A DNA stretch of 64,000 bases, from NCBI GenBank assembly GCA_963755455.1, contig CAVWJH010000001.1, forward strand, positions 146,864-210,863, read 5' to 3'. This document shows positions 37,057 to 62,145 of this stretch, in pieces; the stretch's first letter is position 1; each line of letters starts with the position of its first letter. Source of the DNA: an uncultured Verrucomicrobiae bacterium (GTDB lineage Bacteria; Verrucomicrobiota; Verrucomicrobiia; Limisphaerales; UBA11358). The position numbers and the translations under genes are program-made. A model generated the notes under the pieces. That model searched no databases and was not told where the DNA came from. It was given only the letters and a program-made list of their open reading frames with translations.

Positions 37057-37154
37057 TGACAAAAATGACCAAACCATAATGACGAATGACCAAAGAATTT
37101 CCAAATGTCCGAATGACAAACAAATTAGTCATTAGGATTTAGTAATTAGTCATT
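37055..37154. repeat. Heptamer-periodic arrays (AATGACC/AATGACG units and their partial complement TTAGTCATT) between pilB and pilT
   Basis: gatgacaaaaatgaccaaaccataatgacgaatgaccaaag ... aatgtccgaatgacaaacaa attagtcattaggatttagtaattagtcatt. Confidence 0.65.
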
Positions 37155-37163
37155 TTATTTTTT

Positions 37164-38288: not shown

Positions 38289-38303
38289 TTTTTTATTGAT
38301 AAC

Positions 38304-40010: not shown

Positions 40011-40168
40011 CGGATGCGGGATATTGGCGAGAACACCGCGAATTTTCATTCCGCATTCAGCACTCGACTTTCCGCGTTTGTAAATTCCAGATTTTGACTT
40101 GCAAGTTGACAGGAGATGGTTGAATGTCAATCATCAGCCAATTGTCAACTGTTTATATTTATTGACTT

Positions 40169-41513: not shown

Positions 41514-41530
41514 AAAGCCGCAGAAATCCG

Positions 41531-41575
41531 TTGACAAACACCATGCTCAAGTGTAAATACAATGTAATTACATTG
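41531..41575 (+). promoter_or_regulatory. Sigma70-like promoter (TTGACA-17-TAAATA) followed by a perfect 16-bp palindrome CAATGTAATTACATTG upstream of brnT
   Basis: TTGACA at 41531-41536, TAAATA at 41554-41559, palindrome at 41560-41575. This is the position expected for an autoregulatory TA operator. Confidence 0.45.
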
Positions 41576-41605
41576 CATGGGCGTATTAAATACAATTAGC
41601 TCGCC

Positions 41606-41890
41606 ATGGAGTTTGATTGGAATAATCCGCCCTTTGAAATGGATGGTTCTTTGACTCAACGGGAAATTGAAGAATCCTTTGAAGACCCGTTTGCCGTCCG
41701 GCTGCTGCCCGACTCGCCGAGGTTTGGCGTGCAGGCGCGGTTTTTCAATCTTGGAATGTCCGCCGGCGGCATCGGGGTTTTCAGCGTGTATCGGACAAAC
41801 GGCCGCTCCGTCCGCGTTTTGCACGCGCGCACGTTTGCTCCGGAAGAAAGATTTTTTTACCAGCGAAAAATGGACCAGACGCTTTCGTGA
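41606..41890 (+). CDS. brnT: BrnT family toxin (DUF497)
   Basis: FDWNNPPFE...TQREIEESFEDPFAVRLLPD...RFFNLGMSAGGIGVFSVYRTNGRSVRVLHARTFAPEERFFY. Confidence 0.8.
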   Translation: MEFDWNNPPFEMDGSLTQREIEESFEDPFAVRLLPDSPRFGVQARFFNLGMSAGGIGVFSVYRTNGRSVRVLHARTFAPEERFFYQRKMDQTLS

Positions 41891-41895
41891 AAAAT

Positions 41896-41971
41896 CATTC
41901 TCGTCGTCATTCTCGTCCTCGTCCTCAAATTTTTGGTTTGAAGATGAGGATGACGATGAGTGCGGGAATGA
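41896..41971. repeat. Imperfect periodic hairpin (CTCGTC/TCATTCT-type units) in the brnT-brnA spacer
   Basis: tcattctcgtcgtcattctcgtcctcgtcctca ... tgaagatgaggatgacgatgagtgcgggaatga. By hand, about 24/33 arm positions are complementary. Confidence 0.55.
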
Positions 41972-41983
41972 GATGCAAAACAG

Positions 41984-42259
41984 ATGCGAACTTTTGCCAA
42001 CTGGGAAGACGTGCCGATTTTCGACAGCGAAAACGCGGAGTCGGATTTCTGGTCGGAGAACCGGCCCGACCTGCGGCTGATGGAGGCGGCCACGGCGGGC
42101 AGCGCCGAGGCGTCCGAGTCCGTGACCATCACGCTGCGGATTGACCCGCGGATGCTCGCGCGCATCAAGCGGCTCGCGCGCGCGCGGTATCTGAACTACC
42201 AGAGCATGATCAAGCAATGGTTGAGCGAGCGGATGGAAGACGAATTGCGCGACAAATAA
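41984..42259 (+). CDS. brnA: BrnA-like antitoxin (CopG/RHH-type C-terminus)
   Basis: ...ESVTITLRIDPRMLARIKRLARARYLNYQSMIKQWLSERMEDE. Confidence 0.7.
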   Translation: MRTFANWEDVPIFDSENAESDFWSENRPDLRLMEAATAGSAEASESVTITLRIDPRMLARIKRLARARYLNYQSMIKQWLSERMEDELRDK

Positions 42260-42269
42260 TTATATGAAA

Positions 42270-42299
42270 AGTGACAAGTGGCGAGTGACAAGTGGCGAG
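42270..42299. repeat. Heptamer array (GTGACAA/GTGGCGA) upstream of the first pseudopilin
   Basis: agtgacaagtggcgagtgacaagtggcgag. Confidence 0.75.
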
Positions 42300-42302
42300 A
42301 AA

Positions 42303-43011
42303 ATGATGAGCAACAAGCGGCAAGTGATGCGCCTGAACAAAGCTCATCACTCCGGCTTTCACCCTCATTGAACTGCTCGTCGTCATCTCCATCATCGGCG
42401 TGCTGGCCGCGTTCACCCTCACGGTTTTGAAATCGGTGAAAAGGCACCAATACATTTCCCACACGCAGGCGGAAATGGGGCTGCTGGAAACCGCCATCCA
42501 GCGCTACCACGACGCCTACGGATTTTATCCGCCGGGCAATGGCAGCGGCGATCCACGGGTCAACCAGCTTTATTACGAACTGGAAGGGACGACTTTTAAT
42601 CCGGCAAATAATTCATACACAACCCTGGATGGCGGCTTGCAAATCAGCTCCAACAACCTGAACAAGGCGTTTGGCGTCGGCGGCTTCATCAATTGCACCA
42701 GGCCCGGCTCCGCTGAAGACGCTCATTCCGCCCAAAATTTTCTGCCCGGCTTGAAACCAAGGCAATATAATGCGGTTACAAACCCGTCGCCTGGCGGTCC
42801 GCTCGTCACCATCCTCACCGGTTCGGTTGGCGGGCCGGATCAAAATTACAAGCCGTTCGGTGCGTCTGGCCTGAATCCCTGGCGCTACGCTTGTCCCGGA
42901 ACGAACAACCCCAGCTCGTATGATTTGTGGATTCAACTGGTGATCAATGGGCAAACCAACCTCATCTGCAACTGGAGCGGGCAGGTGCGGATCAACAGCC
43001 CGCTGCCGTGA
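42303..43011 (+). pseudogene. Prepilin-type N-terminal cleavage/methylation domain protein (pseudopilin 1), one frameshift in a T-run near 42357
   Basis: MMSNKRQVMRLNKAHHSG|FTLIELLVVISIIGVLAAFTL... is restored by removing one T from ggctttcacc (compare ggcttcaccctcatcgaactg at 43325). Confidence 0.75.
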
Positions 43012-43037
43012 AAATTTTTATGCGCGACGATAAAAAA

Positions 43038-43126
43038 AGTGACAAGTGGCAAGTGACAAGTGACGGGAAAATGGTGCGCCGGGGAAAAAACCCGTCACTC
43101 GTCACTCGATCACTCGATCACTTGAC
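43038..43126. repeat. Heptamer-periodic hairpin (GTGACAA/GTGGCAA arm and CACTCGT/CACTCGA arm)
   Basis: agtgacaagtggcaagtgacaagtgacggg ... cccgtcactcgtcactcgatcactcgatcacttgac. Confidence 0.85.
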
Positions 43127-43294
43127 AATGCGCGGCCAAATCCCGTGGCCGTGGACTGGCACGACTGCGCGTGGTCGCCGCAAATCGTCGTTCAGACGCC
43201 GTCGCGAACGCAAAACTGGTTCGAGACAAAACAATTGCCCGCACCGCCGCAAATTCTCCATACTCCGCGCCGCAACCGGACCGATTTCAAAACC

Positions 43295-44093
43295 ATGAAA
43301 ACCATCCTGCCATCGTCACGCCGCCATCGCGCCGGCTTCACCCTCATCGAACTGCTCGTCGTCATTGCCATCATCGCAATTCTGGCGGCGATGCTGCTGC
43401 CGGCCATCCCGTATGCCGTGAACCTCGCAAAGAAGAAAAAGGCGCTTATCGAAGAACAGGGGATTGTCACGGCCATCGAAGGTTACGATTCGGAATATGG
43501 CCGCTTTCCGGTTTCGACCAACGCGCAAAATCAGGCCGAATCAAACGCGAGGTCTCCCAAAAACAACCCGGATTTTACTTATGGGGGAACGTTATTAGCG
43601 GAACGACGGTAGGCACTCAAATTTCCGGCGTAGTCTTAACGAATAACGAGGTGATCGCCATTTTGATGGATATGCAAACTTATCCCGGCAGCGGAGCTCC
43701 AACCATAAACAACAATCACGTCAAAAATCCGAAGCAGACAAAATTCCTGAACGCCACGATGACAAGCGACCCGACGTTGCCGGGTGTCGGCCCGGATCTG
43801 GTCTATCGCGACCCGTGGGGCAATCCCTATGTCATCAGCATGGATCTGAATTACGACGACCAGTGTGAGGATGCGTTTTATTGCCAATGGGCTGTTTCTG
43901 AGAATCCACCGGGAGGCAGCAGCCAGTCTGGTTACAATGGACTGGTCAATCCATATCATGGGCCGCAGGGGTGAAGGATCGTTTTCAATATCACGGCAAG
44001 GTCATGGTCTGGTCCGCCGGTCCGGACAAAAAAATTGTTAATGGGCCGGCAAATCAAGGTGTCAACAAAGACAATGTTTTGAGCTGGCAGTGA
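43295..44093 (+). pseudogene. GspG-like major pseudopilin (pseudopilin 2), two frame disruptions (near 43590 and 43970)
   Basis: MKTILPSSRRHRAG|FTLIELLVVIAIIAILAAMLLPA..., later DPWGNPYVISMD and a tail ...VMVWSAGPDKK...VLSWQ*. Confidence 0.8.
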
Positions 44094-44100
44094 AACTTCC

Positions 44101-44121
44101 ATTTACGATTTACGATTCATA
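44101..44121. repeat. Short heptamer array (ATTTACG, about 3 units)
   Basis: atttacgatttacgattcata. Confidence 0.5.
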
Positions 44122-44136
44122 CTGAGGTTTCACGAT

Positions 44137-45016
44137 TTGCAGAAAATCGTCGGAGTCCGTTTCCATCAATCATCAACATTCCCGCGCGCCTTCACGCTGA
44201 TTGAACTGCTGGCTGTGATTACGATTTTGGGCATCATCGCGGGGCTGGCGGTTCCGGCACTGAAGGAGCTCGGCAAATCAAACGGAAACATCGGCGCGTC
44301 ACGGCAGTTGCTCGCCGACGTCGGGCGTGCGCGGCAACTGGCCATGGCCGACCACACGACAGTCTATATGATTTTCGTCAAAACAAATTTTTGGATGACG
44401 CCCAATTTTCCAAATTTTTGGTGGAACAATCCGTTGATGACCACCGCCGAGAAAACCGTGGCGACCAACTTGTGCGACAAGCAATTGACGGGTTACACCT
44501 TTGTCAGCCTGCGTTCGGCGGGAGACCAGCCGGGGCGCGTCACGGTGCGTTATCTGGCACCGTGGCAAAATCTGCCGGCCGGCACCTTCATCGCGCCGCA
44601 AAAATTTCAGCCTCCCTCCAGTCCGCCGTTCCACATTCCGGGTTATGATCCAGCCATCCAATATTTACGGCTTCAACATCACCAACAACATTCCGTTTCC
44701 AACCGAAGACAGCCCGAAGTCGCCGGTTTTATATCTTCCGTATATCGCCTTTAATTATCTTGGACAGCTTACATCCGACGGGCAGAACCTTGCCGCCAGC
44801 GATGAATACATTCCCCTCGCGCAGGGCAGTGTCTTGCCGGCGATAAACCCGGCAACCAAGGCATTGATCCTCGAGGCCGCTCCCGCCGGTTCGGCGTCCA
44901 TTTTAGAAACTCCGCCCGGCAACAGCGGCATTGGTAACAACAACCTTTCCTACAACATCGTCCACATTGACCGGCTGACGGGGCGGGCCACCTTGGAATT
45001 CTACAAAATGAAATAA
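44137..45016 (+). pseudogene. Pseudopilin 3 (GspH/FimT-like), one frameshift near 44645
   Basis: ...SSTFPRA|FTLIELLAVITILGIIAGLAVPAL...SRQLLADVGRARQLAM, then a frame change to ...IYGFNITNNIPFP...RLTGRATLEFYKMK*. TTG start. Confidence 0.7.
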
Positions 45017-45030
45017 TTCAGGAACTCAAT

Positions 45031-46386
45031 ATGAAAAAAACATCGCAATTGATCATGGGGTTGATTTTGTGCGGGGTTCTGACTACCTCCGCCACGGCGC
45101 AATCCATCTATTCCACACCTTACACTTTTACCACCATTGCCGGAACCGCCGGAAACAACGGCGGCAATGACGGCACAAATGGCACGGCGCAACTCTACTG
45201 GCCGGAGGGCATCGCCGTGGACACCAATGGCAATCTCTATGTGGCGGACAACTATGAGGACACCATCCGCAAGGTCGCGCCGTCCGGCACAAACTGGGTG
45301 GTGACCACCATCGCTGGAACTGCTGGAACCAGCGGTGGCAATGACGGAACAAATGGCGCCGCACGCTTCATCGAACCGGTCGGCATCACGATTGACGGAA
45401 CAGGCAACCTGTATGTGGCGGATTCTGGCAACGACACCATTCGTGAAATCACGCCGTCGGGGACGAACTGGGTGGTGACCACCATTGCCGGAACCGCCGA
45501 GATTGGGGGTTTTGCCGACGGGACGAATGGCAGCGCACAATTCAACGACCCATCCGGCATCGCGGTGGATACCAACGGCATCCTTTATGTGGCCGATGCT
45601 TACAACTGCACCATCCGTGAAGTCGCGCCGTCGGGGACGAACTGGGTGGTGACCACCATTGCCGGGACGGCGACGAACATTGACGGGATGGTGCCGAACT
45701 ATGGCAGCGCCGACGGGACAAATGGCGCCGCGCAGTTCTCCGGGCCGTCCAGCATCACGGTTGACGGGTCGGGCAATCTGTATGTGGCGGACACCTACAA
45801 CGACACCATCCGCAAGATTGCACCGTCGGGGACAAACTGGGTGGTGAGCACGATTGCGGGCCAGGTTGGAAACAGCGGCATCGCCGACGGGACGAATTTT
45901 GCCGCGCAATTCTACTATCCATCCGGAATCGCATCAGATCGCTCCGGCAATTTATATGTGGCCGATACCTACAACTACACCATCCGCAAGATTACGCCGT
46001 CGGGGACGAACTGGGTGGTGAGCACGCTGGCGGGGGTGGCTGGCATCAATGGCAGCAACGACGGCACCGGAACCAACGCGCTGTTTTACTATCCTTATGC
46101 CGTTGCGGCGGACGGCGCGGGACATCTTTTTGTGGGAGACACCATCAACGGCACCATCCGGCAGGGCTGGATCGCGGCGATTCCAAATCTGAAGGTTGTC
46201 CTGACCGCAACGAACAGCGTGGTTGTTTCCTGGCCCAATCTGGGCGGCTACACGCTGCAAACCAATTCGGATTTGACGGCGACCCACTGGGCCGGTTACG
46301 GCGGCTCTGTCACGACCGTCAACGGCACAAACAGCGTCACCCTCTCGCCGCCGTCCGGGAAACTGTTTTTCCGTTTGACGAATTGA
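45031..46386 (+). CDS. Secreted six-bladed NHL-repeat beta-propeller protein with a ~70-aa C-terminal beta-sandwich-like domain ending FFRL
   Basis: Signal peptide MKKTSQLIMGLILCGVLTTSATA. Six units of ...G(I/L)AVDxxGNLYVAD..NDTIRK(I/V)xPSGTNWVV(T/S)TIAGTAG..G..DGTN.... The C-terminus reads VVVSWPNLGGYTLQTNSDL...WAGYGG...GKLFFRLTN. Confidence 0.85.
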   Translation: MKKTSQLIMGLILCGVLTTSATAQSIYSTPYTFTTIAGTAGNNGGNDGTNGTAQLYWPEGIAVDTNGNLYVADNYEDTIRKVAPSGTNWVVTTIAGTAGTSGGNDGTNGAARFIEPVGITIDGTGNLYVADSGNDTIREITPSGTNWVVTTIAGTAEIGGFADGTNGSAQFNDPSGIAVDTNGILYVADAYNCTIREVAPSGTNWVVTTIAGTATNIDGMVPNYGSADGTNGAAQFSGPSSITVDGSGNLYVADTYNDTIRKIAPSGTNWVVSTIAGQVGNSGIADGTNFAAQFYYPSGIASDRSGNLYVADTYNYTIRKITPSGTNWVVSTLAGVAGINGSNDGTGTNALFYYPYAVAADGAGHLFVGDTINGTIRQGWIAAIPNLKVVLTATNSVVVSWPNLGGYTLQTNSDLTATHWAGYGGSVTTVNGTNSVTLSPPSGKLFFRLTN

Positions 46387-46392
46387 AGATCA

Positions 46393-47199
46393 ATGAAATT
46401 TCGCCCGCAACATTATCATCCGCAATCGGCCTTCACGATGATCGAGGTCGCCATCAGCCTGGCGATCATCGGCATCGCGCTCGTCGGCATCATCGGCGTG
46501 CTGCCGCTGGGATTGAACACGCAGCGCGTCAATCGCGAGCAGACCGTCATCAACCAGGACGCGACCGTTTTCATGGAGGACATCCGCAACGGCGCACGCG
46601 GCGCGGATGATTTGACGAATTATGTTTATGCCATCGTGATTACGAAAGCCGCCAGTCAAAACGTCTATATCAACCCGACGCTTGCCGGCGCGATGGGTTT
46701 TTCCACTGCCATTTTGCCTACGACGCCGCCCATTCAATCGTATCCCATACTGACCAACGGCGCGAACATTGTCGGCCTGTTGAGCACGCCGGAATTTTTG
46801 AACGTGGACGGCGGGATTGCGGACAGCACTTACACGGCGGCGATGAGCAATCACATTGTGGCCAGCGTCCGCTCCATCAACGGGCCGGCGTTTGAAAAAC
46901 CGCCGCAGGACAACGCCATTTTGAAGCAGGATTCATTCAGCTACCGCATTTATTGCGTCAACGCGCCGGTGGCGGTTGATACCAATGCAGTCGCCAATCC
47001 CGGTTACACGCGCCAGCTCGCCGCCAACCTGCACGACCTGCGCCTGACGTTTCTCTGGCCGGTGCTGCCAACCGGCAAACTGCCGGCGCAGCCCTTCCTT
47101 GCGACGTATCGAACCCTCGTCGCCGGGCAGGTTGCGCAGGACGCCGTCAACACCAATTTGTTTTTTTACCAGCCGCAATCATTCACCACCGCGCCGTGA
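46393..47199 (+). CDS. Pseudopilin 4 (prepilin-type N-terminal domain, GspI-position)
   Basis: MKFRPQHYHPQSA|FTMIEVAISLAIIGIALVGIIGVLPLGL. Confidence 0.8.
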   Translation: MKFRPQHYHPQSAFTMIEVAISLAIIGIALVGIIGVLPLGLNTQRVNREQTVINQDATVFMEDIRNGARGADDLTNYVYAIVITKAASQNVYINPTLAGAMGFSTAILPTTPPIQSYPILTNGANIVGLLSTPEFLNVDGGIADSTYTAAMSNHIVASVRSINGPAFEKPPQDNAILKQDSFSYRIYCVNAPVAVDTNAVANPGYTRQLAANLHDLRLTFLWPVLPTGKLPAQPFLATYRTLVAGQVAQDAVNTNLFFYQPQSFTTAP

Positions 47200-48152
47200 A
47201 AACAAAAACAACAGTGGCAAGTGGCAAGTGGCAAGTGGCAAGAGCCTCGTCGCGAGGATTTTGTCTTGTCACTCGTCACACGTCACTTGTCACCCGCTCC
47301 GCCTTCACTCTCATCGAGGTGATGGTGGCGGTGGCGCTGCTCTCGCTCATCGTCATCGCGCTGATGGCGGTGTTCAACAGCACGCAGGCGGCGTTCCGCG
47401 CGGGCGTCACGCAGGCGGGCATTCTGGAGGGCGGGCGCGCGACGATGGATTTGATCTCGCAGGATTTGAAGGAGATGGCGCCGTCGGACGGTGTCAGCAA
47501 TGGCGTGGTGAATTTTTACGCCTACGTCGTCAGTTCGCCCGGCCCGCTTGTCCAGACGCTGACCGCCAGCAGCCGGTCGCGGACAAACGTCCTGGAAACA
47601 ATTTTTATCTTGAGCCGCGACAACCAGACTTGGATCGGCACGGGCTATGTCGTGGACACTTCGGCCACGGCGTCCATCAATCCGCTCTACCGTTTCACCC
47701 CCGCCGATTTGCCGCCGCGTCCAGCCCCGTGGCAGATTTTTACCAATTTTCTCGCCAACAGCACGCTTCCGATTTCGCAAAACAACACCAACATGAGCCA
47801 TCTGCTGGACGGCGTGGTGGATTTTCGCGTGCGCGCCTTTGACACCAACGGCGGGCGGATGAACAATCAAGTTGTTTTTACCAGCGGTCAGTTCACCACC
47901 AACGAAAATGTTTATTATCTGCCGTCCGGTTCCGGCTCCGGCTTTGGCGAGACGGGCTTTGTCATGTTCAGCAACACGCTGCCCGCGTCCGTGGAGATTG
48001 ACATGGCCACGCTCGAAGACCGCACCTTGCAGCGCGCCGAATCGCTGCCGAACAACCTGCGCACATCCTATTTGCAGGGTCAGGCAGGCAACGTCCAGGT
48101 TTTCCGCCAGAGCGTTTCCATTCCCAATGTTGACCCGTCCGCCTATCAATGA
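47196..48152 (+). CDS. Pseudopilin 5 (GspJ/PulJ-like) with an unusually long leader
   Basis: GTG overlaps the upstream stop (GTGA). MKTKTTVASGKWQVARASSRGFCLVTRHTSLVTRSA|FTLIEVMVAVALLSLIVIALMAVFNSTQAAFR. Confidence 0.8.
   Translation: MKTKTTVASGKWQVARASSRGFCLVTRHTSLVTRSAFTLIEVMVAVALLSLIVIALMAVFNSTQAAFRAGVTQAGILEGGRATMDLISQDLKEMAPSDGVSNGVVNFYAYVVSSPGPLVQTLTASSRSRTNVLETIFILSRDNQTWIGTGYVVDTSATASINPLYRFTPADLPPRPAPWQIFTNFLANSTLPISQNNTNMSHLLDGVVDFRVRAFDTNGGRMNNQVVFTSGQFTTNENVYYLPSGSGSGFGETGFVMFSNTLPASVEIDMATLEDRTLQRAESLPNNLRTSYLQGQAGNVQVFRQSVSIPNVDPSAYQ
47213..47293. repeat. Heptamer-periodic hairpin (GTGGCAA x4 arm / TTGTCAC-type arm) lying inside the pseudopilin 5 leader-coding region
   Basis: agtggcaagtggcaagtggcaagtggcaag agcctcgtcgcgagg attttgtcttgtcactcgtcacacgtcacttgtcacc. 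Confidence 0.85.
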
Positions 48153-51100
48153 AAATAAAAAGTGACAAGTGGCAAGTGACAAGTGATAAGCGCCGTTGCC
48201 CGGCGCGCGGTGGAACTTTTGCCGCCCATCACTCGTCACTTATCACTCGCCACTCCGAAAACGGCGTCGCGCTGATCATCACGCTCATCCTGCTGGCCGT
48301 GACACTCGTCATGGCGCTCGCGTTCCTGGCCATCAGCCGCCGCGAAAGCGGTTCCGTGACGACCGCCGGCGAGACCGCCACCGCGCGCCTTGCCGCCGAC
48401 GCCGCGCTTGCCAATGCCGAGGCGCAGGCCGTGGCCGGCATCCTCTCCACGACCAATCCCTACGATTTCGGCCTGCTCGTCTCGACGAACGCCCCGCCGT
48501 TGAATTTCAACAACGGTTTGGGCGACTACACCAGTTTGCAAATCAGCCCGCGCCCGCCGGTGTTCATTCCGCAAAACGGCACGAACGATTTTCGTTTTTA
48601 CCTCGACCTGAACCGCAACGGGCATTTTGACTCCAACGGCATCGTGGCGGATGTGGACAACACGGGAGTGACGAATGGAAATTTCTCCTTTGAAACCGGC
48701 GACCCCGAATGGATCGGCGTGCTGGAGCATCCCGACCAGCCGTATGGGCCGGACAACCTGTTCATCGCGCGCTACGCCTTCATCGCCCTGCCCGTCGGCA
48801 ACGCGCTCGACTTGAATTACATTCACAATCAGGTTCTTGATGAACGTTCTTCGACGGTAAATCCACCGAAAGGAATTAACAACAATCCTGAAAATGATTT
48901 ATATTTTCGCAACCAAGATATTGGTTCCTGGGAATTGAACCTCGCGGCATTTCTAGCCGATGTAAACACGAATCAGTGGGGAAGAATTATTGATCCGCCG
49001 AACATCATCGGCAACGGCAGTGGCTATTACACTTACAACGAAACTTCAGGAAATCCGAATCATGGCGCTGCCTTTGACGACGCCCGCGCGCTGCTCGCGT
49101 ATCGTTACGCGAACAATTACAACACGCTTGCCTGGGTCCAGACCCTTTTCGGCAACACCGGCGCGACGGCGTTTCGGAACGATGGCATTGACGGCTATTC
49201 CGACGGGCCGCTGCAGACGACTTTTGACACCAATGAGGATTTTGTTTTCAGTAGCGCCAAGGACATTCCCACACTGCCGTGGGCGGGCGCGGACAGCACC
49301 AACCATTTCTTCACGCCGTCGGATTTGTTCGACCCGGCGAAAAGCTCGCCGGCTTTCACCAACCGACTGCTCATTGCCGACGCGCAAACGGACACCTACG
49401 ACCGCTACACCTATTACCGGCTGCTCTCGCAGCTTGGCACGGACTCCGATCCGGAATCGGGGCAAGATGAATTTGAACTACGACAATCTCGATCGCGGCT
49501 TCAACGGCGTTTTGAACACCAACGGAACCGCGAGCGCGACGAATTTTGTTCCCTGGACGCCGCTGGGATTTTTCACCAACGCCGCCGACCGGATGCTGCG
49601 CGAATATACTGCGAACTGGATCAATCAAAACTACGCCGGTTTCACCAACACTTTCGGCGTCTCGACGACCAGCGCCTTTGGCGTGACGAACATCCCGGTT
49701 TATGTCAATGGACGGTTTGTCTATACACCCGCCGTTCACCGCATCCTCCAACTGGCCGCGAACATTTACGACGCGACGGTGAGCAACAGGAAGAACGGCT
49801 CGCCCGATTATCCCGATGTCTTCCGTCCGCTGTTCAGCAAGGATGCGGCGGGCGATGTTTTCATCTCCGGCTACACGAACTTGAACAATGGCGGCGTTCC
49901 CAATACTGTTTCAGGGCCGGGCGATCCACAGCTTTCCCAGCCATTTGATGTAGCGTATATTTCCGGCTTGTCCGGCGTCATTACCAACGTGCCGGACAAC
50001 ATCTACGGCGTGCCGTGGATCATCGGCGCGAAGAAAGGCTTCCCGAACTTCAACGAAATTTCGATGGAGAACAGTCTGGCCGTCACGCGGCGGCTTCAAC
50101 TGACCCGCACGACAAATAGTTATGTGCCGGTCATCACCGGCACGAACCAGATGTATACGATGAGTTTGAGCAGTTCAATCGGGGTCGAGCTGTGGAATTC
50201 TTACAGCTCCAATTATCCCGGCACGATCCAGATTGACGTGAATGAAAATGCTTGGACGATGATCACCAATTACGATCGGGGTGCGCGTGAATGGAAAGTG
50301 AATCCATTTCCATTTACAACCAACAATTTTATTGCTCCCTATGTTCCTTATGTAATCAATTCATGGCCGGGATCCGGCGTGGGTTGGAGAAGCAGTGGCA
50401 GTCCGAATACCGCCTCATTTGTCCCTTTTGTTTTTACCGGCCCCACTCTGACCAACTCGGTTTATTATTCGTCTTATTATGCAGGCGCGCCAGGCGTGCC
50501 TGCCGGGACTGATTTGTTTTCCACAAACAGCTTGCCGAGTCCCGTTCCTTGGGAACCTACTTCGACGGATGGGAACGGTTTTCATTTCCCGCAGTTTGGA
50601 GTGCTGATAACGAACCGGTTGCAGGTCTTCATGCTGGATGTCAGTGGCGGCGTGTATCACGTCATTGATTATGTCCATTTTGAAGGGCCGGACAGCCCCT
50701 TCAACGTGAATGCAAGTCTGGTTGATAATGACGGCCTGAATAATTATGTGGGCGTGTGGGATACAAATTATCCAACTGGCAGCGTGCCGCCAGCCGGAGT
50801 GACTTATGGCATCTTGAATCAAATCAGGATTTCAAAAAGTGGTGCGCCAGATCAGGATTTAGATGGTTTGTGGCAGGCAGATCCCGAAGCGGTTCCCCTT
50901 GGCGGAACCATAGCCCAACAGCAGGCATTTTTTCAGGCATTTTTCCTGCCGGGCAATCATTCTGGCAGCACAACGAATTTGGAATTAAGCGTGGAAGCGC
51001 CTTACGCGCCGACTCGTTATATTTCACAATATACCACCTGGCAGGTTAATGATCCGCTCGTGCATTATCTGGCCAGCGACATTGATGCGCCGCCACTAAA

Positions 51101-52211
51101 TAACACATCCATACCGCAACCCGGTTTGAATCACTACAATTTCCCCATCACGAACGGATTGACGAGCCTTAACTTGGGGCAATTGAATGATCGTTATATG
51201 CCGTGGGGTGGCAACTCGAAGCTGGCGGCTGAAGGACAGGCGTTGCAATTTGACCCAAATGCCTACAATTCGGCGGAGCGCGATCCGCTGGCGTCTTCAT
51301 CGGACAACTGGGATTTTCCGACGAACAAACTGCCGACGACCGGCTGGCTGGGTCGCGTGCATCGCGGCACGCCGTGGCAGACGGTCTATCTCAAGTCGTC
51401 GCCGATAGACACCGCCACATGGGCGACGTGGACGGGCGATACGCAGACAAGTTTCAACCAATACTTCGACGCGGCCAATTCCGCGCCGGCGCAGGACCGT
51501 CTGCTGTTCGATCTTTTCACGACGGCGTTCAACGACAACGCCACGCGCGGCCAGCTTTCGGTCAACGTCGCCGCCAACGATCCCGATCCGGCGGCGGGAC
51601 TCGCGGCGTGGTCGGCGTTGTTGAGCGGCGTCGTTGCGCTGACAAACAATCCGTTTGCCGGAACCGTGACCAACACAATCATCCAGCCTGCCGGGATTTA
51701 CGATGCGACATTGCCGCTGACCAACCAGCCGCCGCTCGCGCAAATTGTCGAGGGCATCAACAGCGGGCGGACAAACTTTGTGGGCGCGGACAGATTGCGC
51801 GGCTCGTTTGAGCACGTCGGCGACATTTTGTCCGTGCCGCAATTGACGGACAAGTCGCCATTCATTTCCATCATTCCGCAAACCGTTGACGGCGCTGGAC
51901 AGATCATACCGCCAGTTTATCCCAACGACGAAGTCATGGAATGGCTGCCGCAGCAGGTGATGTCGCTGCTGCGCGTGGGCACGCCGCGCTATGTGATTTA
52001 CAGCTACGGCCAGGCGCTCAAGCCCGCGCCCTCTCCAAACGGCATTTATACGGCGAATGGGTTGCTGATCACGAATTACCAGATCGTGTCGGAAGCCGCC
52101 ACGCGCGCGGTGGTGCGCTTTGACAGCACGGTGACGAACATCAACGGCACGCTCTCCGTGACGAACAACCGCGCGGTGATCGAGAGTTATAACATTTTGC
52201 CGCCGGATTGA
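48149..52211 (+). pseudogene. Giant GspK/PilX-like minor pseudopilin (~1350 codons), one frameshift in a G-run near 49465
   Basis: ATG overlaps the upstream stop (ATGA). ...HSENG|VALIITLILLAVTLVMALAFLAISRRE... The ORFs 48149..49948 and 48990..52211 join at ...GTDSDPESG|KMNLNYDNLD. Confidence 0.7.
48161..48254. repeat. Heptamer-periodic hairpin inside the GspK-like leader-coding region
   Basis: agtgacaagtggcaagtgacaagtgata ... catcactcgtcacttatcactcgccact. Confidence 0.85.
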
Positions 52212-52214
52212 ACA

Positions 52215-52920
52215 ACCGCCAAGACGCAAAGGCACAAAGATGAAGACAATATTTTGTAGGAGCCGAGGTTACGAGGCTCAAATTAAAAAGTTGGAGACTC
52301 CTTGCGTGGTCTTCTGCATAGCGACGGACTTTGTAAGGAAAACGGTCAAAAACCGCCATTTTGGGATGAATTGCCTCAAAACAACGGGATTATCCAGATG
52401 ACAAACATATTAAAACGCCAATTTCGCTTGGCCGGATGGTCGGGCAACTTGGCCGGATGGTCGGGCAACTTGGCCGGATGGTTGGGCAACTTGGCCGGAT
52501 GGTTGGGCAACTTGGCCGGATGGTCGGACGACTTGGCCGGATGGTCGGGCGACTTGGCCGGACGGTCGGACGACTTGGCCGGACGGTCGGGCGACTTGGC
52601 CGGACGGTCGGACGACTTGGCCGGATGGTCGGGAAACTTACCCGAACGGTCGGGAGATTTAGCTGGAGGGTCGAGCAATATGCGGCTGCGGTTCGATGCG
52701 CCCTGCGCCGAACACTTCGTGCGGACAACTCGTTTGCGGAAGGCGGACGAATTGCTCCGGTCATGCGCGCCAGAAAGTCAACGACGTGGCGTCGTTGACG
52801 GCACGCGAGGCGCGTGCGCTCCCAAAAATTTTAAGGTTTCAATTTTGAAAAATGGCATACAGAGGGTAGTCTATACCAGTAATAATGCCGACTCTTGGCG
52901 CTCTTTGCGTCTTGGCGGTT
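52215..52920. repeat. Intergenic repeat block bounded by a perfect 18-bp inverted repeat (AACCGCCAAGACGCAAAG / CTTTGCGTCTTGGCGGTT)
   Basis: Left copy at 52215-52232 and right copy at 52903-52920. The interior holds a GTAGGAG-type REP (~52255), a 21-bp minisatellite and a CACGCGAGGCGCGTGCGCTCCC REP (~52805). Confidence 0.6.
52428..52679. repeat. Tandem minisatellite, 12 x 21 bp (TTGGCCGGATGGTCGGGCAAC and variants)
   Basis: Twelve head-to-tail units counted by hand. The first ten are near-identical, with patterned variants (GGCAAC, TTGGGCAAC, GGACGAC/GGGCGAC alternation). The last two are degenerate. Confidence 0.9.
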
Positions 52921-52933
52921 AAGTGTTTTATTT

Positions 52934-55900
52934 ATGCGTTCGAGAACGACAATCTGGATTGCGCTGAGTCTGCTGCTGGCGGCGGGCGCGTGGTTTTTCT
53001 GGCCGCACGCAAAGCGCGTGGCGGTGGAAAAATTCATGCCGCCCATCGCCGGCGCGTTTCATTCCGCCTCGACCGCGCCGCAGATCTTTCCGTTGAATGC
53101 CGTTTCCAAAAATTCCGCCAAAATAGTTGCGGCGGCGGCGGAGACAAACCGGTTCGCATATCGTTTGAGCAACACGACGAAGTCCATCGGCGAACTGATG
53201 AACGACCGTCATGCGATCCTGCTGGAGAACGCGCTGATTGACACGAGCGCGAAGCTGGATTTTTCCATTCCCAAAAATTTGCAGGCGCAGGGCGATCCGG
53301 GCGCGTATTTCGTGCAGGCGGACGGGACGATTGGCCCGGCGTTCCGCGCAATGCTGTCGGCGGCGGGCGCGCAGATCGTTTCCTACTTCCCGAACAACGC
53401 GTATCTCGTCCGCGTTTCGGCGGGCGGCGCGGGCGCGCTGGCCGCGAATCCGCTGGCGCAGTCGGTGATTCCCTACGAGCCGTATTACAAGGTGCAATCG
53501 CCGCTGATCGCGTATGACCAGACCACTTTGCCGGCGGGCGCGACGTTGAACCTCGGATTGTTCGCGGATAATCCGGCGGCGACCATCAAGCAGATTGAGA
53601 AGCTCGGCGGAACCATTTTGTCGCAAGAAAGCGAGCCGTTCGGACTGGAAGTGCGCGTGCGTCCGCCGTCGGACTGGACGGCACTGGCGCAACTGCCCGG
53701 CGTGCAGATCGTCGAGCAGAGCCGCACGCGCGAACTGGCCGACGACCTGTCGCGCGTGACAACGGGCGTGGCCGTGAACACGACCACCAATGCGAATTAT
53801 CTCGGACTGACCGGCAAGAACGTGGTCGTGGCGGAGGACGATTCGGGCGTTGACGCGACGCATCCTGATTTTGCGACGGGGCGCGTGATTGGCGACGCGG
53901 CGGGAAGTTTGGTGGATACGAACGGCCACGGCACATTTGTAGCGGGCATCATCGCGGGCAACGGCGCGGAATCAATGACCGTGACGAACGCGCAAGGTTC
54001 GATCAATCCCGGGACAAACGGGCAATATCGTGGCATGGCGCCGCTGGCGACGTTGTATTCCGTCGGCGGCATTGATGGCGGCGCGGACACGAATGTGATT
54101 TCCGACCGTTACCTTCAGGAATCCGCTGCGCGGACAAACGCGCTGATTGCCAACGAGAGCTGGGGCTACGGCGGCGACAATTTATACGACCTGGCGGCGG
54201 CGAGCTACGACGCGGCGACGCGCGATGCCCTGATGCAAGTCACCGGCCCGCAGCCGGTGTTGTTTGTGTTTGCGGCGGGCAATGACGGCCAGATTGGCAG
54301 AAACGGTGCCAACGGTGACGACTCCGGCGGCGGCGGCACGCCGGACACGATCACGTCGCCCGGCACGGCGAAGGACGTGCTCACGATCAGCGCGCTGGAG
54401 CAGGATCGCGGCATCACCAACACTTACGACCCGCGCGGCACCACCAATCCGGTTGAGGCATGGAATGCGGGGACGGATTCGAGTTCGGAGGTGGCGGATT
54501 ATTCGAGCCGTGGCAACGTCGGCATCGGCACGGAAGGGCAGTGGGGGCGGTTCAAGCCGGACGTGGTCGCGCCGGGATCGTTCGTGATCTCCACGCGCTC
54601 GCAGCAATGGGACCAGCAGGCGTATTACAATCCGAGCAATACTTATGTCAATGACGCGACCTTCCAGTTGGTGGACACGAACGCGCTGAATTATTACAAC
54701 TTCCCGTTTGTCGTCCAGAACAACGCCGTCAGCGTCAGCCTCCGGGTCCAGCCGAACGATTTGTCGCCCGTGCCATTTCCGCCGGATATGCCGATTTATG
54801 TTTCGCTGAACAATTATCCCGACCCGGCGAATCCGGGGACGTATGATTTCGTGTCCGAATAATATCGTGACGATTCCGCCGGCTGGTATTCCAGACGGCC
54901 CGACATATCTTCAGAGCATCATCAACAATCTGGGCGGCTTCAACTTTGCGGTCGGCGACGGCACGAACATTCCGGTCAATTACGATTTGGTGGCGGAAAT
55001 GGTCACGACCAACGACATGGGCGATTATTACACGGTGTTGAGCAATTTGAACAACTCGCTGGATGGCGACGTGCCGCCGCATTATTACCGCTACGAGAGC
55101 GGCACGAGCATGGCGGCGGCGGGCGTGTCTGGCGTGCTGGCCTTGATGCAGGATTATTTCACGAACACGCTGCATCTTACGCCCAGCCCGGCGCTGCTCA
55201 AGGCGATGCTCATCAACGGCGCGCGTCCGACCGGCTACTACAATTTGCAGGTGGACAACAGCATCAACCCCGAAGGCTGGGGACTGGTCAACCTGCCCAA
55301 TTCCATTCCGGCGGGAATCACCAACACGGCGGCCACCGCCACCAATTCATTTTTCTATGTTGACCAAAGCCCGACCAACGAGCTGGCCACGGGCGACAGC
55401 CGGACATATACCATTTCCCTCTCGGCGGGCGCGATGTCCGTGCCGTTGCGTTTCACGCTCGCGTGGACCGATCCGCCCGGCAACCCCGCCGCCGCCATCA
55501 AGCTCGTCAACAACCTTGATCTGATCGTCACCAACATGGACAACACGAATGTCTATTACGGCAACGACATCGGTCCCAACCAGGTCTTCAACACGCCGGA
55601 AAGCTCCACCAACGCGGCACCCAGCCTGGACGGCATCAACAATGTTGAAAATGTTTTCCTGCCCGCAAACGCCGGAACGAACTTCACGGTCGTCATCCGG
55701 GCAACCGCCGTGAACGTCAACGCCGTTTCCGAGCAGACGAACAATGCGGCGGGAGTTTTTGCGCCGAACATCGTGCAGGATTTTGCGTTCGTCATTTCCA
55801 GCGGCAACGGGTCGAACACCAACGGCTTTGCCATCACGGGCAGTTCGCTGGTGTCAAATCCCACCGGCGATCAGCGCATTACGATTGACAGCGCCACAAA

Positions 55901-58900
55901 CGCCACGCCGTTGATGAACCAGTTCGTCGGCGCGAGTTCGCCGCTGCTCGGCACAAATACCGTTAGCTTCGGGGCGAACACAAATGAACTCGTCACTGTG
56001 GGCCAGACCAACCAGTGGCATTTCTATGTTGTCACCAATTACGGCGCGTCCAGCGACTTCACCAACGCGGCATTCGTCACTTTCCTGCCGCCGACGGCGG
56101 CGATTCCGCGCGGGGGGGTTTTCGCAAATTCCGACGCCAATTCCACGCGGCCCGAGGCGGACATTGACCTGTTTGTGACAACCGATCCCGGTTTGACGAA
56201 TCTTGATCCGAACGTGATTTCCAACTGCATCATCAATCCGCAAGTCGGGAAGTCGTCGCCAGTCGGAGTGAATGGGACATTTTACGGTGCGGCTTTGGAT
56301 CGCGGCGGCTCGGAATTTGTCGTGGACACCAATTCCACGCCGGGACAGGTTTATTACGTCGGGGTTCAATCCGAAGATCAGATGGCTTCTGAATACGCCT
56401 TTCTGTCGGAGTTCAGCAACATTCCGTTCAGCAGTCTGGACAACAATGGAAACGAATCCGCTGTGTTTTATCCGGTGAACATTCCCGACGGCGATGCGAC
56501 GCATCCGGGATACACGAACAGCCTCGCCCTGACCATCTTCCCGGTGGAAATCGAGCGCGTCGTGGTGACCAACACCCTCACGCAGCAAAATGCCGGCGAC
56601 CTCGTGATCTCGGTGAACCATTCCACCGTGGCGAACGGCGACGGCTCGGTGGTCCTGTTGAACCACGATTCGCCAAATGCAGCCGGCACCTACACGACCA
56701 TTTATGACGACAGCGGCCAGAACGACATTTTGAACTCGCAGCCTTCGGACGGGCCCGGCTCTTTGGGCGCGTTCACCGGGCAGGAAGGAATGGGAGTATG
56801 GCTGCTGCACGTTTCGGACAACGCGCCCAGCTTCGTCGGCAGCGTCCAGGGCAGCCTGTTCATCCAGCCGCACATTCCTCTTGGAAGTGGCACGACCAAC
56901 ACGGTCGCGCCGGGCAAGTGGTATTACAACTTCGTAGACGTGCCGCCGGGCGCGACAAACCTGACCATCAGCGTGACGAACTTGACTTCCCCGCCGCTGC
57001 CTCTGGATGTGTATGTCAAATTAGGCGCACAGCCGACGACCAACGATTTTGACAAGATGATGGTGACTCCCACCGTGCCGTTGCCAAATCCGGGCGGTTC
57101 GCTGTCCATCGGGCCGACGGACGTGCCGCCGATTCAGCCCGGGCGTTATTACGTCGGCGTCTATAATCCAAACCCGGTCGGCAGCGCGGATCAAAGATTT
57201 TCACTTTTTGCGGCCATTCTGCCGCCGTCGCCCAGCGCGACGCCGGTGGATTTTGCCGCCGCCGGCCCGGTGCCGCTGCTCGATGACGCGATAACCATCT
57301 CCAGCAATTCGATCATTACCATGACCAACACCGAACCGATCGTGTCGGTCAACGTCGGCATCGTCGTGGATCATCCACGCATCTCGGATCTGGCGTTCAC
57401 ACTCATCAGCCCGGACGGCCGGCGCATTCTGCTCATGGAAAATCGCGGCGGCACCACCACCAACGGCGCGGGCGCAAGTGCTCTTGTCACGAATTCTATC
57501 ATCGTGTCGAGCAATGACTTTGAAGGATTGACGGCGACAAATTATATTGCGGGTCAAACCGTGGGTGGATGGAGTGTGGCATCAGGCCAAGTCAGCGTCG
57601 TCACCAACCCTGCGAACGCCTACGAAGGCAGCAACTTTCTGGCGCTGGCCAGCGGTTCGATTTCAACCAACCTGCCCACGGTGGCGGGACAGACTTATAC
57701 GTTGACGTTCGCTTATCGCGGGCCGGGAATCGCCGGCTGGTGGCGCGGGGAAAACAATGTCAACGATGCCATCTACGGAAATAATGGCACGGTTCAAAAT
57801 GCCGGTTTTACCAACGGTGTTGTCGGCCGGGCATTCTCAAATGATCCTGAAAATTATCCATATGGGACATACAATGGTTTTGACGTTCCAGACCAGCCAG
57901 CTTACCAACTGACCAACTCGTTGTCCATTGAAGGATGGGTCAGACCGCGTGGTGATGGCTACGCCATCTTCTGGCGCGGAGACAGCACGCCGGGGTATGA
58001 CCCTTATTTCCTTGGGATGCAGGGAAACAATACCGCCGGTTTCTACATTACAGACGCGGCCAACAACTCCACCAATGTGAACGGCACACTGACTTACAAT
58101 GTATGGCATCATGTTGCTGCCACGCTGGATGGCACTTCCGGCAATATGTCGCTCTATGTTGATGGCGTGCTCACCAGTCAAATCAATACTCCATTGAGGC
58201 CCTTCGGAGCGTTGAATCCCGGGATGTCTCCGGGTATCGGCATTGCGAATGTGAACGATGGTCAAAACAATTTCCCGTTCACTGGTGACATTGACGAGAT
58301 CTCGCTTTACTCGCGCGCTATAAGCGCCAGCGAGGTCAAGGCGATTTTCAACGCTAGAGCAGGCAAGTTCGATCAGGCTGAATTTGCCAATTCGCCATCT
58401 TTAAGCCTGGCCGAAGCCCAAGTCAGCGTGAATGGCAGCGATTCACCCGCTTTCTTCGGTAGCAACACCGTATGGCAGACTTATACAAACACATTCACCG
58501 CCACTTCGACCGGCACGCCGCTGGTCATCAGCGGCATCGAGCCGGGGATGTTGCTTGACGCGATCAACTTGACGACGGTGCAGACAAATACTCAATATCA
58601 ATATCTCACTTTCACCGAGGACACGAACCTGACCACGACGCCCATCAAGTTCGCCGTGCCGCCGTTCGTGCCGGATACTAATACGGCTGTTTTGTTCACC
58701 AACAGTTTTGAAGGAACAGCCGCTGCGGATTATGCCAGTGGTCAAACTGCGGCTGGGTGGACGGTGGAAACGAATCAGGTCAGCGTTGTCGCCGACGCCA
58801 ACACAACTCCGTATGGCAGCAACTTCCTGGCACTGGCAAATGGAACAATTTTGACCAATCTGCCGACCGTCGCGGGACGGACATACACGTTGTCATTTGC

Positions 58901-60587
58901 CTATCGCGGGCCGGGAATCGTCGGTTGGTGGCGTGGTGAGACCAACACGCTTGATTCTATCGGCGGCAATAATGGTTCGTTCCTTGGCTCTGCCAGCTAC
59001 ACCAATGGAGAAGTGGGAAACGCCATGTCATTCAATGGCGTCAACAACGGAGTGCTCGTTCCGGCGTCTGCAAATCTGAATGTAGGCGCGGACAATGGAT
59101 TAACCATCGAAGCCTGGGTCAATCCTTCCGAGATCACCCCCGGTGGCAAAGCTAACCCAGTGGTTGAATGGAATGAAGGCGACGGTTATAATTTTGGATC
59201 GGCTTTCTGGTTGACCCATCCGACTGACCCCAGCGGCAATTTCTTTGCAAATCTCGTTGATACTGGTGGAACTTGGCATACAATCTTTTCACCGTCAGGA
59301 CTTATCCAGACAAATGTTTATCAGCACGTTGCCGTGACGTATAATAAAATAACCGGCAACGCGGCACTTTTCTACAATGGTGTGCAGGTGACTAACATGA
59401 ATCTTGAATCTTTTACGCCTCAAACGAGCTATCCACTTTATATTGGTGAGAGACCTCCAGGTGATATCAATAGCTGGGTATTTTCCGGATCCATTGATGA
59501 ACCATCTATTTATAACCGCGCGCTTTCCGCAAGTGAGATTGCAGCCATTTACAGTAACGGCATTGCAGGCAAATTCAATCCCGTTGAATTCAGCACTTCA
59601 CCTGCGCAGAGCCTTGCCGAAGCCCAAGTCAGCGTGAATGGCCAGACATCTGCCACCCTTTACGGAAACAACACCAGTTGGCAGACGGAAACCATCACTT
59701 TCACAGCGACGCAAAACGGAACGCCGTTGCAAATCTCCGGCATCGAGCCGGGAATGTTGCTGGACGATTTTGTGCTGACCCAGGAGCCGGGAAATCTTTA
59801 TTACCTGCCCGAGCAATCGCTCGCTCCGCTCGACGGCGAGAGCGCCGCCGGCGAATGGCAGTTGGAAATCCAGGACGACCGCGCCGGTGCCTATGCCTCG
59901 AACAATCCGCCCGCGCTCGTAAGCTGGGAGTTGCAGTTTGTCTTTGCTGACACCAACGCGGTGCCGTCAGTCTTGAGCGGCGGCATCGGTCAATCCAATC
60001 AATTCATCCCGGCCGGCGACATCGCGTGGTATCAAATTAGTGTGCCGGCAAATGCGAATTACGCGACGAACATCCTTCGCTTTGCCAGCGCGCCGGTCAA
60101 CGTCTGGTTCAGCACGAATTCGCCGCCGACAATCACGAATACCGGCGATGTGGATTTGATTTCTGATTCAACCGGCAATTCCGTGTTGTTGGGCACGAAC
60201 GGTTCGCCGGTCAACACAACGTGGGCTTACATCGTCCCCGGCTTGACTTATTATCTCGGCGTGCAAAACGCGGGCAGCTCCACCGTCAATTACGGGATTG
60301 AAGTGGATTTTGACCGCGGCAACTCGACAAATTCAACCTTGCCTCAAATTGTTGTTAGCAAAGTCGCGCAAACTGGCGGCGGCACGATTCAATTCCAATG
60401 GACGGCTTCATCCAGTTCGCCAGTCGAGGTGCAATGGACGACGAATCTCGCGTCGCAGGTTTGGAACACGATCACCAACCCCGCCACGACCACCAGCAAC
60501 GGCGTGTCCACGTTCACGGACGACGGCTCGCAGACCGCGCCATTGGGCGCAGTGCGCTTCTACCGGCTCGTGCAGCCGTCGCCATAA
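52934..60587 (+). pseudogene. Giant S8 (subtilisin-family) peptidase (~2550 codons) with P-domain-like and duplicated LamG-type modules; one frameshift near 54858
   Basis: Signal anchor MRSRTTIWIALSLLLAAGAWFFW. Asp VVVAEDDSGVD (~53836), His NGHGTFVAGI (53927) and Ser SGTSMAAAGVSG (55107) are split between ORFs 52895..54862 and 54843..60587. HPRISDLAFTLISPDGRRILLMENRGG is P-domain-like. There are two LamG_3-like modules, and the C-terminus ends RFYRLVQPSP. Confidence 0.85.
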
Positions 60588-61449: not shown

Positions 61450-61531
61450 AGTCCAAAGCCCAAAGTCCAAAGTCCAAAGTTGCCGAAACGGGAAATCAAT
61501 CGGCAATCGGCAATCGACAATCGGCAATTGG
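61450..61531. repeat. Two adjacent heptamer arrays inside uvrA (AGTCCAA/AGCCCAA units, then AATCGGC units)
   Basis: agtccaaagcccaaagtccaaagtccaaag ttgccgaaacggga aatcaatcggcaatcggcaatcgacaatcggcaattgg. The uvrA frame changes from 0 to 2 somewhere across this stretch. Confidence 0.8.
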
Positions 61532-62105: not shown

Positions 62106-62145
62106 TTAAAAACTAAAAATTCAAAACTCAAAACCCTTAAAATTC
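62106..62145. repeat. In-frame AT-rich heptamer array inside uvrA (AAAAACT/AAAAATT/CAAAACT units)
   Basis: ttaaaaactaaaaattcaaaactcaaaacccttaaaattc encodes QLKTKNSKLKTLKI between LGGEEFVS and PGLSIMDV. Confidence 0.75.

Follow-up and report, generated by a model that had tools for sequence, protein, structure and literature searches.

The window analysed here is a stretch of 64,000 nucleotides from the genome of an uncultured Verrucomicrobiae bacterium (GTDB lineage Limisphaerales; UBA11358; GenBank assembly GCA_963755455.1, contig CAVWJH010000001.1, positions 146,864 to 210,863 of the forward strand), and it carries an operon of pilus-type genes that is followed by a very large predicted protease of the subtilase (S8) family, the subject of this report. 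Coordinates are window positions throughout, and all features of the protease lie on the + strand. The protease is read as two overlapping open reading frames (ORFs) whose frames are one base apart, ORF A (52895..54862, 655 codons) and ORF B (54843..60587, 1,914 codons), and a single Pfam profile, Peptidase_S8 (PF00082), is divided between them: ORF A matches profile positions 1-228 (E 2e-25, 90 bits) and ORF B positions 200-288 (29.9 bits), both above the gathering cut-off of 21.8 bits, while the intact orthologue in the closest public relative (locus L043) scores 119.7 bits. The start that fits the N-termini of the orthologues, which begin MRSR or MRLR and continue into a hydrophobic stretch, is the ATG at 52934, and read-through of the frame change gives a protein of 2,550 residues, in agreement with the size of about 2,550 codons proposed in a first-pass annotation of this DNA. 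That annotation had also placed the catalytic Asp and His in ORF A and the Ser in ORF B, as parts of one subtilase gene with a complete triad and a single frame change, and the split of the Pfam profile and the mapping of the residues bear this out; the contrary case that it had raised, of two separate genes with the first lacking a catalytic Ser, does not hold, as the relatives have one ORF. Judged from sequence, ORF A and ORF B are a single pre-pro-subtilase gene of ~2,550 residues, the predicted parts of which are as follows.

52934..54859 (+): 5' part of the gene (frame 2), with the signal or anchor, the propeptides, the S8 core and the start of the insertion
52934-53008 (+): N-terminal hydrophobic signal or anchor, conserved across orthologues
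~53303-53719 (+): two I9-like propeptide domains of beta-alpha-beta-beta-alpha-beta form, with a predicted local distance difference test score (pLDDT) of 73-83 in an AlphaFold2 (AF2) model that is otherwise poor
~54617 to ~55082 (+): inserted beta domain, between the VVAPG strand and the Ser helix
54851..54859 (+): frame-change site, frame 2 to frame 3, from orthologue alignment; it falls in the insertion, not in the catalytic core
54858..55784 (+): rest of the insertion, C-terminal part of the S8 domain with the Ser, and KP-43-type jelly-roll (~55332-55784), from profile search, AF2 and Foldseek
56553-56849 (+): weak P-domain-like segment (16.5 bits, below the Pfam cut-off; a hint only)
56934-57164 (+): segment like the pre-peptidase C-terminal (PPC) domain (20.7 bits, below the Pfam cut-off; a hint only)
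57345..57464 (+): N-terminal half of a split proprotein-convertase P-domain (HPRISDLAFTLISPDGRRILLMENRGG), Pfam profile positions 3-43 of 86, E 4e-15
57489..58598 (+): module 1, a choice-of-anchor-C-like jelly-roll plus LamG_3, nested within the P-domain, from Pfam and NCBIfam
58677..59804 (+): module 2, which duplicates module 1 (45% identity), with LamG_3 at 59037-59543
59823..59939 (+): C-terminal half of the split P-domain (GEWQLEIQDD...LVSWELQFVF), ORF B residues 1661-1699, profile positions 53-86
60342..60587 (+): C-terminal domain of ~80 residues ending ...RFYRLVQPSP, with the stop codon, from a genome-specific profile

The frame of ORF A stops at a TAA codon (54860-62), and that of ORF B, which is the frame of ORF A +1, is open from 54810. 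Eight orthologues align unbroken across the junction, with ...PGTYDFVS in the frame of ORF A followed by NNIVTIPP... in that of ORF B, and every orthologue examined (ORFs of 1,700-4,448 residues) reads the junction in one frame. L043, whose contig names (k141) point to a short-read assembly, carries the NHL gene, I-like and J-like pseudopilins, a K-like gene of 1,343 residues, the protease and uvrA, in that order, and its protease, 86% identical as a protein, is an intact ORF of 2,257 residues. In a DNA alignment with this locus, nucleotide identity is ~86% across 4.6 kb, on both sides of the frame change, and the sole uncompensated gap in the protease with a length other than a multiple of three sits at the 54851-54859 site, which confirms the earlier placing of a frameshift at ~54858.

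Further genes of the same assembly are interrupted likewise. Relative to the intact uvrA of L043, G003 and G014, the uvrA of the window (60700-63705) has about five frame changes, near 60773, 61082, 61301, 61962 and 62890, which are single extra bases in surroundings that are 85-100% conserved at the protein level; further differences of lengths not divisible by three occur around the heptamer arrays at 61450-61531. Further away in the genome, secA (C2:566107-568595) is broken in two or more places, and rpoB and rpoC are intact. In the operon upstream of the protease, comparison with the intact ORFs of three relatives locates frame breaks at 41370, 43610, 43955, 44610 and 49462, the genes concerned being the PilC-type gene (at its 3' end), the gene at 43145-44090, which is broken twice, the pseudopilin at 44137-45010 and a giant K-like gene, where the break lies in a GGGG run (49462). 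The host genome is in 4 contigs, yet has a marker completeness of 65.6%, as is typical of long-read assemblies in which indels remain. Among public loci, the short-read or long-read status of which was judged from contig names, frame switches within the first 1,500 residues occur in 2 of 6 long-read loci, against none of 31 short-read loci.

Since the relatives read through, the flanks are conserved and other genes, essential and housekeeping ones included, are broken in the same way, the frame change in the protease is very probably an indel error of long-read assembly. It is most improbable that the change is real, be it the mark of a pseudogene, the origin of two products of which the first has no Ser, or a programmed +1 frameshift: the deposited sequence does carry it, and the site lies outside any long homopolymer, which speaks against an assembly error, but the flanks hold no other uncompensated indel, the breakage of essential and housekeeping genes is of the same kind, and the shift is common to no relative and has no evident slippery or stimulatory motif at the site. 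Programmed frameshifting in particular was rejected on the ground that no relative shares the shift. The two ORFs merit annotation as one gene with a probable assembly indel, and the many frame breaks of this assembly bear on any other finding made in the genome.

The N-terminus of the protease is basic and continues into ~18-20 hydrophobic residues with no Cys, an arrangement that is kept in the orthologues. This segment may serve either as a signal anchor or as a signal peptide of some length, and an anchor may be lost on cleavage of the two I9-like propeptides; the hydrophobic N-terminus behind the earlier description of the protein as membrane-anchored is real, and the anchoring itself is uncertain. 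Pfam gives no score to the two propeptide-like domains. They were recognised in an AF2 model of residues 1-1150, built with 15 close orthologues, which is poor overall (pLDDT 41.9) and was kept out of the fold search, and within which residues 124-180 and 205-262 adopt confident I9-type shapes.

The catalytic residues can be assigned to single codons. The Asp is the second D of AEDDSG (53840-53842), the His lies in NGHGTF (53927-53929), the oxyanion Asn in AAGNDG (54281-54283, in ORF A) and the Ser in GTSMAAA (55107-55109, in ORF B); the positions first given for the His (53927) and the Ser (55107) were exact, and that of the Asp (~53836) is corrected here. In the numbering of L043, D303, H332 and S709 are invariant in 15 orthologues, and the three catalytic residues are invariant in 33 wider homologues as well. 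The order Asp-His-Ser, the motifs, the oxyanion-hole Asn and the Pfam score are those of the S8 family, and the conservation of the catalytic residues suggests that the protease is probably active.

A second AF2 model, of L043 residues 268-935 and built from 33 sequences that include distant homologues, has a pLDDT of 81.7 and a predicted template modelling (TM) score of 0.82. A Foldseek search with this model places KP-43 (1wmd) at the top (E 1e-36, TM-score 0.86 on the target), with SubHal (5fax) at a TM-score of 0.85, and a sequence-profile search of the PDB finds the same two proteins (E 5e-48; chain residues 3-241 and 248-423). Both are Bacillus alkaline S8A subtilases with a C-terminal beta-barrel domain. 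The protease has in common with them the catalytic domain and the jelly-roll that follows it, as well as the order and motifs of Asp, His, Asn and Ser, and in the model the catalytic domain passes directly into a jelly-roll of similar fold. It departs from the compact KP-43-type form of ~430 residues by an insertion of ~140-150 residues and by ~1,600 further residues, being about six times longer than KP-43, and, unlike KP-43, it belongs to a diderm Verrucomicrobium, is encoded by a pilus operon, and has a split P-domain, LamG modules and a C-terminal domain of sorting type. The insertion, lying between VVAPG...STRS and YRYESGTS, is modelled as an extra, mostly-beta domain (model residues ~290-435) that is absent from KP-43 and from homologues of other phyla and is shortened in three members of the family. 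The ~180 residues initially described as inserted correspond to the whole distance from VVAPG to the Ser, which is 181 residues; the net insertion relative to KP-43 is the smaller figure given above.

The P-domain-like segment and the two jelly-roll/LamG_3 modules that had been noticed downstream are borne out by Pfam matches. The C-terminal half of the P-domain alone scores 22 bits, and when the two halves are spliced in silico they match profile positions 3-86 with 53 bits (E 3e-14); the P-domain is thus split, with two modules of 390 residues each nested inside it. The modules align with each other at E 2e-82, and their LamG_3 match in Pfam reaches E 2e-40. A P-domain sequence above the Pfam cut-off is also what the protease has in common with the proprotein convertases kexin and furin (S8B). 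In contrast to the arrangement in those enzymes, where the P-domain is packed directly after the catalytic domain, here it lies ~600 residues past the catalytic domain and is split by the ~780 residues of nested modules, and the catalytic domain is closer to S8A. A match to TafC (NF052521), a haloarchaeal Tat-fimbria subunit (PMC11821415), was rejected, its score being 68.4 bits against a cut-off of 410 and its extent being limited to the LamG-like part (profile positions 161-367).

The family to which the protease belongs is large, with at least 1,631 proteins at E <= 1e-20, of which the best 120 span 1,275-3,872 residues; where names are given, they are "S8 family serine peptidase", "subtilisin-like proprotein convertase family protein" or generic domain labels. 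Close homologues differ freely in the length of the C-terminal 1,000-3,500 residues and in the lectin-type modules found there, which include LamG, NHL, RCC1, cadherin-like and glycosyl-hydrolase domains. The combination of a hydrophobic N-terminus, propeptide-like domains and PPC, P-domain and LamG modules would be typical of a secreted protease.

The genes upstream of the protease, taken here to form one operon with it, are as follows.

35347..48152 (+): rest of the operon, with two PilB/GspE-type ATPases, PilT, PilC/GspF, pseudopilins and the NHL gene, from family matches and relatives
45031-46386 (+): NHL propeller gene inside the pilin block, within the operon
48149..52211 (+): giant GspK/PilX-like pseudopilin gene, the upstream neighbour of the protease; one gene of 1,316-1,417 residues in relatives, frame-broken here at ~49462

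The order, all on the same strand, is a LacI-type regulator, a PilB/GspE ATPase, PilT, a second PilB/GspE ATPase and a PilC/GspF platform protein, followed by several pseudopilins, the NHL gene, the giant K-like gene and the protease. The pseudopilins (G-, H-, I- and J-like) give weak matches to GspH/I/J/PilV and "Verru_Chthon cassette" models, and the K-like protein, of ~1,350 residues, has a pseudopilin N-terminus and a faint GspK match. Because PilT is present and a secretin is absent from the operon, the gene set looks like that of a retractile type IV filament and not of a classical, secretion-only type II secretion system (T2SS), so that the description first applied to it, a secretion-type pilus system, is upheld as to the pilus and revised as to the type. 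The genome as a whole contains at least six PilB/GspE-type ATPase genes, four PilT-like genes and six secretins (in G000, at C3:165047, C1:693019, C4:496212, C4:334756, C2:480312 and C2:1016585), three of which lie near other ATPase genes.

Some features of the operon vary among relatives. A free NHL propeller gene in the pilin block is found only in the closest relatives (L043, L045), and an NHL propeller is fused into the protease, in place of a LamG module, in the homologues P0005, P0007, P0008, P0010, P0011, P0013, P0017, P0022 and P0030. The NHL-carrying close homologues are 70-75% identical to the protease in the catalytic region, and the presence of the propeller within them hints at a functional partnership between the free NHL protein and the protease. 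In relatives, the C-terminal ~740 residues of the K-like pseudopilin are also encoded on their own, in ORFs of 840-1,000 residues with no pilin N-terminus (for example G011:C4:927940-930312, G015:C72:5176-7389, G001:C293:533-2716). The spacer between the K-like gene and the protease (52212-52933) measures 722 nucleotides here and ~20-950 nucleotides in relatives; it holds a repeat block with a 21-bp minisatellite, and an ORF within it (52302..52922), which has no family match, is probably not a gene. A scan of the 3' end of the protease for promoters and terminators gave nothing usable.

By their records, relatives belong to subdivision 3 of the Verrucomicrobiota (Limisphaerales) and stem from soil, peat and lakes. 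The linkage between protease and filament genes was followed in 40 sampled relatives, of which 24 belong to the same genus and 16 to other families of the order. In 25 of the 40, spread over 12 families, the protease adjoins the K-like gene in the same orientation, and six have no orthologue of either gene. Five were left out of the judgement, their contigs ending between the two genes, and apparent cases of a K-like gene with no protease in G026, G027 and G028 were discarded, because there the contig breaks off immediately behind the K-like gene. Around eight orthologues, 40 kb were inspected directly, and the full operon order is kept in seven. Among 28 public loci, of which ~25 could be evaluated, the K-like gene lies directly upstream of the protease in 19 and does not in about six. 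A search of 100 other Verrucomicrobiota genomes, sampled across the phylum, returned no orthologue at E <= 1e-50. On this comparative evidence, the protease is a conserved terminal gene of an operon that is restricted, among the genomes sampled, to Limisphaerales. The first-pass observation that the protease stands directly behind the pilus operon therefore extends well past this genome, and the outcome that it had named as fatal to its proposal, namely that the two are never linked elsewhere, is contradicted by the relatives. As the adjacency is kept across families at 40-60% protein identity, it points to a functional tie, in relatives that are not independent samples.

Type IV filaments adhere, pull, take up DNA and push proteins out. 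Gene order and conservation suggest that the filament and the protease probably work together, and the proposal made earlier, that the protease is a cargo or cell-surface effector of the pilus system, is plausible. With moderate confidence, the pre-pro-subtilase is taken here to be a dedicated passenger of the retractile type IV filament, destined for the cell surface or the medium. In such a scheme, the Sec system would export the protease by means of its N-terminal hydrophobic segment, and the two I9-like propeptides would aid folding and then be removed autocatalytically, which would release the protease from the inner membrane. With its lectin-like modules, the mature form would then be taken to the cell surface or into the medium as a dedicated passenger of the filament machine. 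It would either be expelled as T2SS substrates are or sit together with the giant K-like subunit at the tip of the filament. Once outside, it could bind material that is glycan-bearing or proteinaceous, and cleave it.

Two kinds of known system resemble this arrangement in part, and no description of this protease family or operon was found in the literature. PilY1/PilC are large non-pilin proteins that are encoded after the type IVa minor pilins (fimU-pilVWXY1E in Pseudomonas) and located at the pilus tip. The protease occupies the same slot, that of a large, signal-bearing non-pilin after minor pilins of H/I/J/K type in an operon with PilT, and in both proteins a region that faces outward is variable. 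The likeness is one of position only: the protease is predicted to be an enzyme, unlike PilY1, and the C-terminal propeller domain of PilY1 is found neither in the Pfam matches of the two ORFs nor in those of the L043 orthologue, even at E <= 1. PulA, the pullulanase of Klebsiella, and SslE/YghJ, a metalloprotease of E. coli, are dedicated T2SS substrates encoded in the operon of their system. With these the protease has in common, from the genes alone, that it is a very large hydrolase with a probably Sec-dependent N-terminus, encoded beside a pseudopilus machine. The PulA and SslE systems, however, have their own secretin and GspC/L/M and no PilT, whereas the operon studied here has PilT and no secretin, and PulA and SslE are lipoproteins, whereas the protease has no lipobox Cys.

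Several observations weigh against a dedicated filament passenger. In a subclade comprising G015, G041 and G043, both genes are retained but apart, the K-like gene lying elsewhere in the genome with unrelated genes behind it. None of the six secretins of the genome lies near the operon. A scan of the 722-nucleotide spacer found no promoter or terminator consensus. Lastly, the C-terminal domain of the protease is carried by 44 other ORFs of the genome and persists in relatives that do not have the operon. As to the unlinked subclade itself, its genomes are larger (5.9-6.7 Mb), the loci concerned are G015:C2:1-2600 (L073), G041:C2:2557000-2559000 (L071) and G043:C99:32500-34600 (L072), and the K-like gene is followed there by an opposite-strand gene of 360-430 residues that ends in ...GGNGEVIVYY.

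The C-terminal domain had been described as shared with the NHL protein of the operon. A BLASTP comparison of the protease with the NHL protein shows no common domain, while a profile built from the C-termini of the genome itself finds it in both, with E 2e-17 in the protease and E 2e-4 in the NHL protein (at 46174-46383). The same profile recognises 45 ORFs of the genome, other S8 proteases among them, and in 43 of these the domain stands at the extreme C-terminus, with the ending consensus (R)(F/Y)(F/Y)R(L/V)xxxP. Among 7,792 ORFs of at least 150 residues, 50 have [FYW][FYW]R[LVIM] in the last 14 residues, against 4 at a random internal position. Pfam and NCBIfam searches with the domain returned no match. 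In relatives, its copies number 130 in G028, 92 in G011, 54 in G003, 18 in G009 and none in G032; in G011 the orthologous protease is missing and the only K-like gene is a shorter paralogue, and in G009 nothing matches the K-like gene and the protease is represented by a distant paralogue alone. The separate K-like ORF of G011 mentioned above also ends in a ...FYRL-type C-terminal domain. The sharing with the NHL protein is thus real, and the specific link between the two genes that had been read into it is not, 45 ORFs carrying the domain: from its distribution in these genomes, it is a general module of secreted proteins of the lineage, with no specific tie between protease, NHL protein and pilus. 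It probably acts as a signal for sorting or attachment, and would seem to be a Limisphaerales domain of that kind that is not yet catalogued.

Since this domain is generic and persists where the operon does not, export of the protease could run by a general, filament-independent route. This is the main rival to a dedicated passenger: a route that recognises the ...FYRL domain would carry the protease out, and the linkage to the filament genes would reflect co-regulation only, the pilus, for example, attaching the cell to a substrate that the protease then digests. The occurrence of the domain on other S8 proteases, its abundance in G011 and G009, the absence of a secretin from the operon and the retention of the protease in the unlinked subclade all agree with such a route. 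Same-strand adjacency over 12 families at the degree of divergence seen here is nevertheless stronger than is usual for mere co-regulation, and the six genomes with neither the protease nor the K-like gene also argue for a tie between the two, so that export by a general route is judged rather unlikely.

A more specific form of the proposed partnership would be an enzyme-armed retractile pilus, in which the giant K-like pseudopilin and the subtilase would form a tip complex: the cell would extend an active protease with lectin-like heads, which would bind and cut polymeric material away from the cell body before retraction. This must be regarded as doubtful; if true, it would represent a class of type IV filament so far undescribed, with a protease in the place of the PilY1 adhesins.

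An improbable role is that of a processing or assembly factor internal to the system, in the manner of mycosin in type VII secretion (T7SS), which would cleave or stabilise the K-like subunit or the long-leader pseudopilins and leave external substrates alone: the N-terminal membrane segment and the strict adjacency to the K-like gene would suit it, and the best NCBIfam match of the catalytic part is indeed T7SS mycosin (TIGR03921), but that match was rejected, at 36.9 bits against a cut-off of 278.75 the protein is no member of the mycosin family, PPC and P-domains are typical of secreted proteases, and the highly variable, lectin-rich C-terminal regions make internal processing unlikely, fitting outward-facing binding and not housekeeping.

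What is new here is the diagnosis of an assembly error within the protease gene, the exceptions to its linkage with the filament genes, and the independence of the shared C-terminal domain from the operon. An order of abundant soil and peat Verrucomicrobia keeps a protease of 2,000-4,400 residues, predicted to be active and to carry sugar-binding modules, as the last gene of a filament operon, where it follows a tip-type pilin of 1,300-1,400 residues. If filament and enzyme act together, the protease would be a new kind of filament passenger, and the pair would offer uncultured soil bacteria a new way to reach and degrade polymers.

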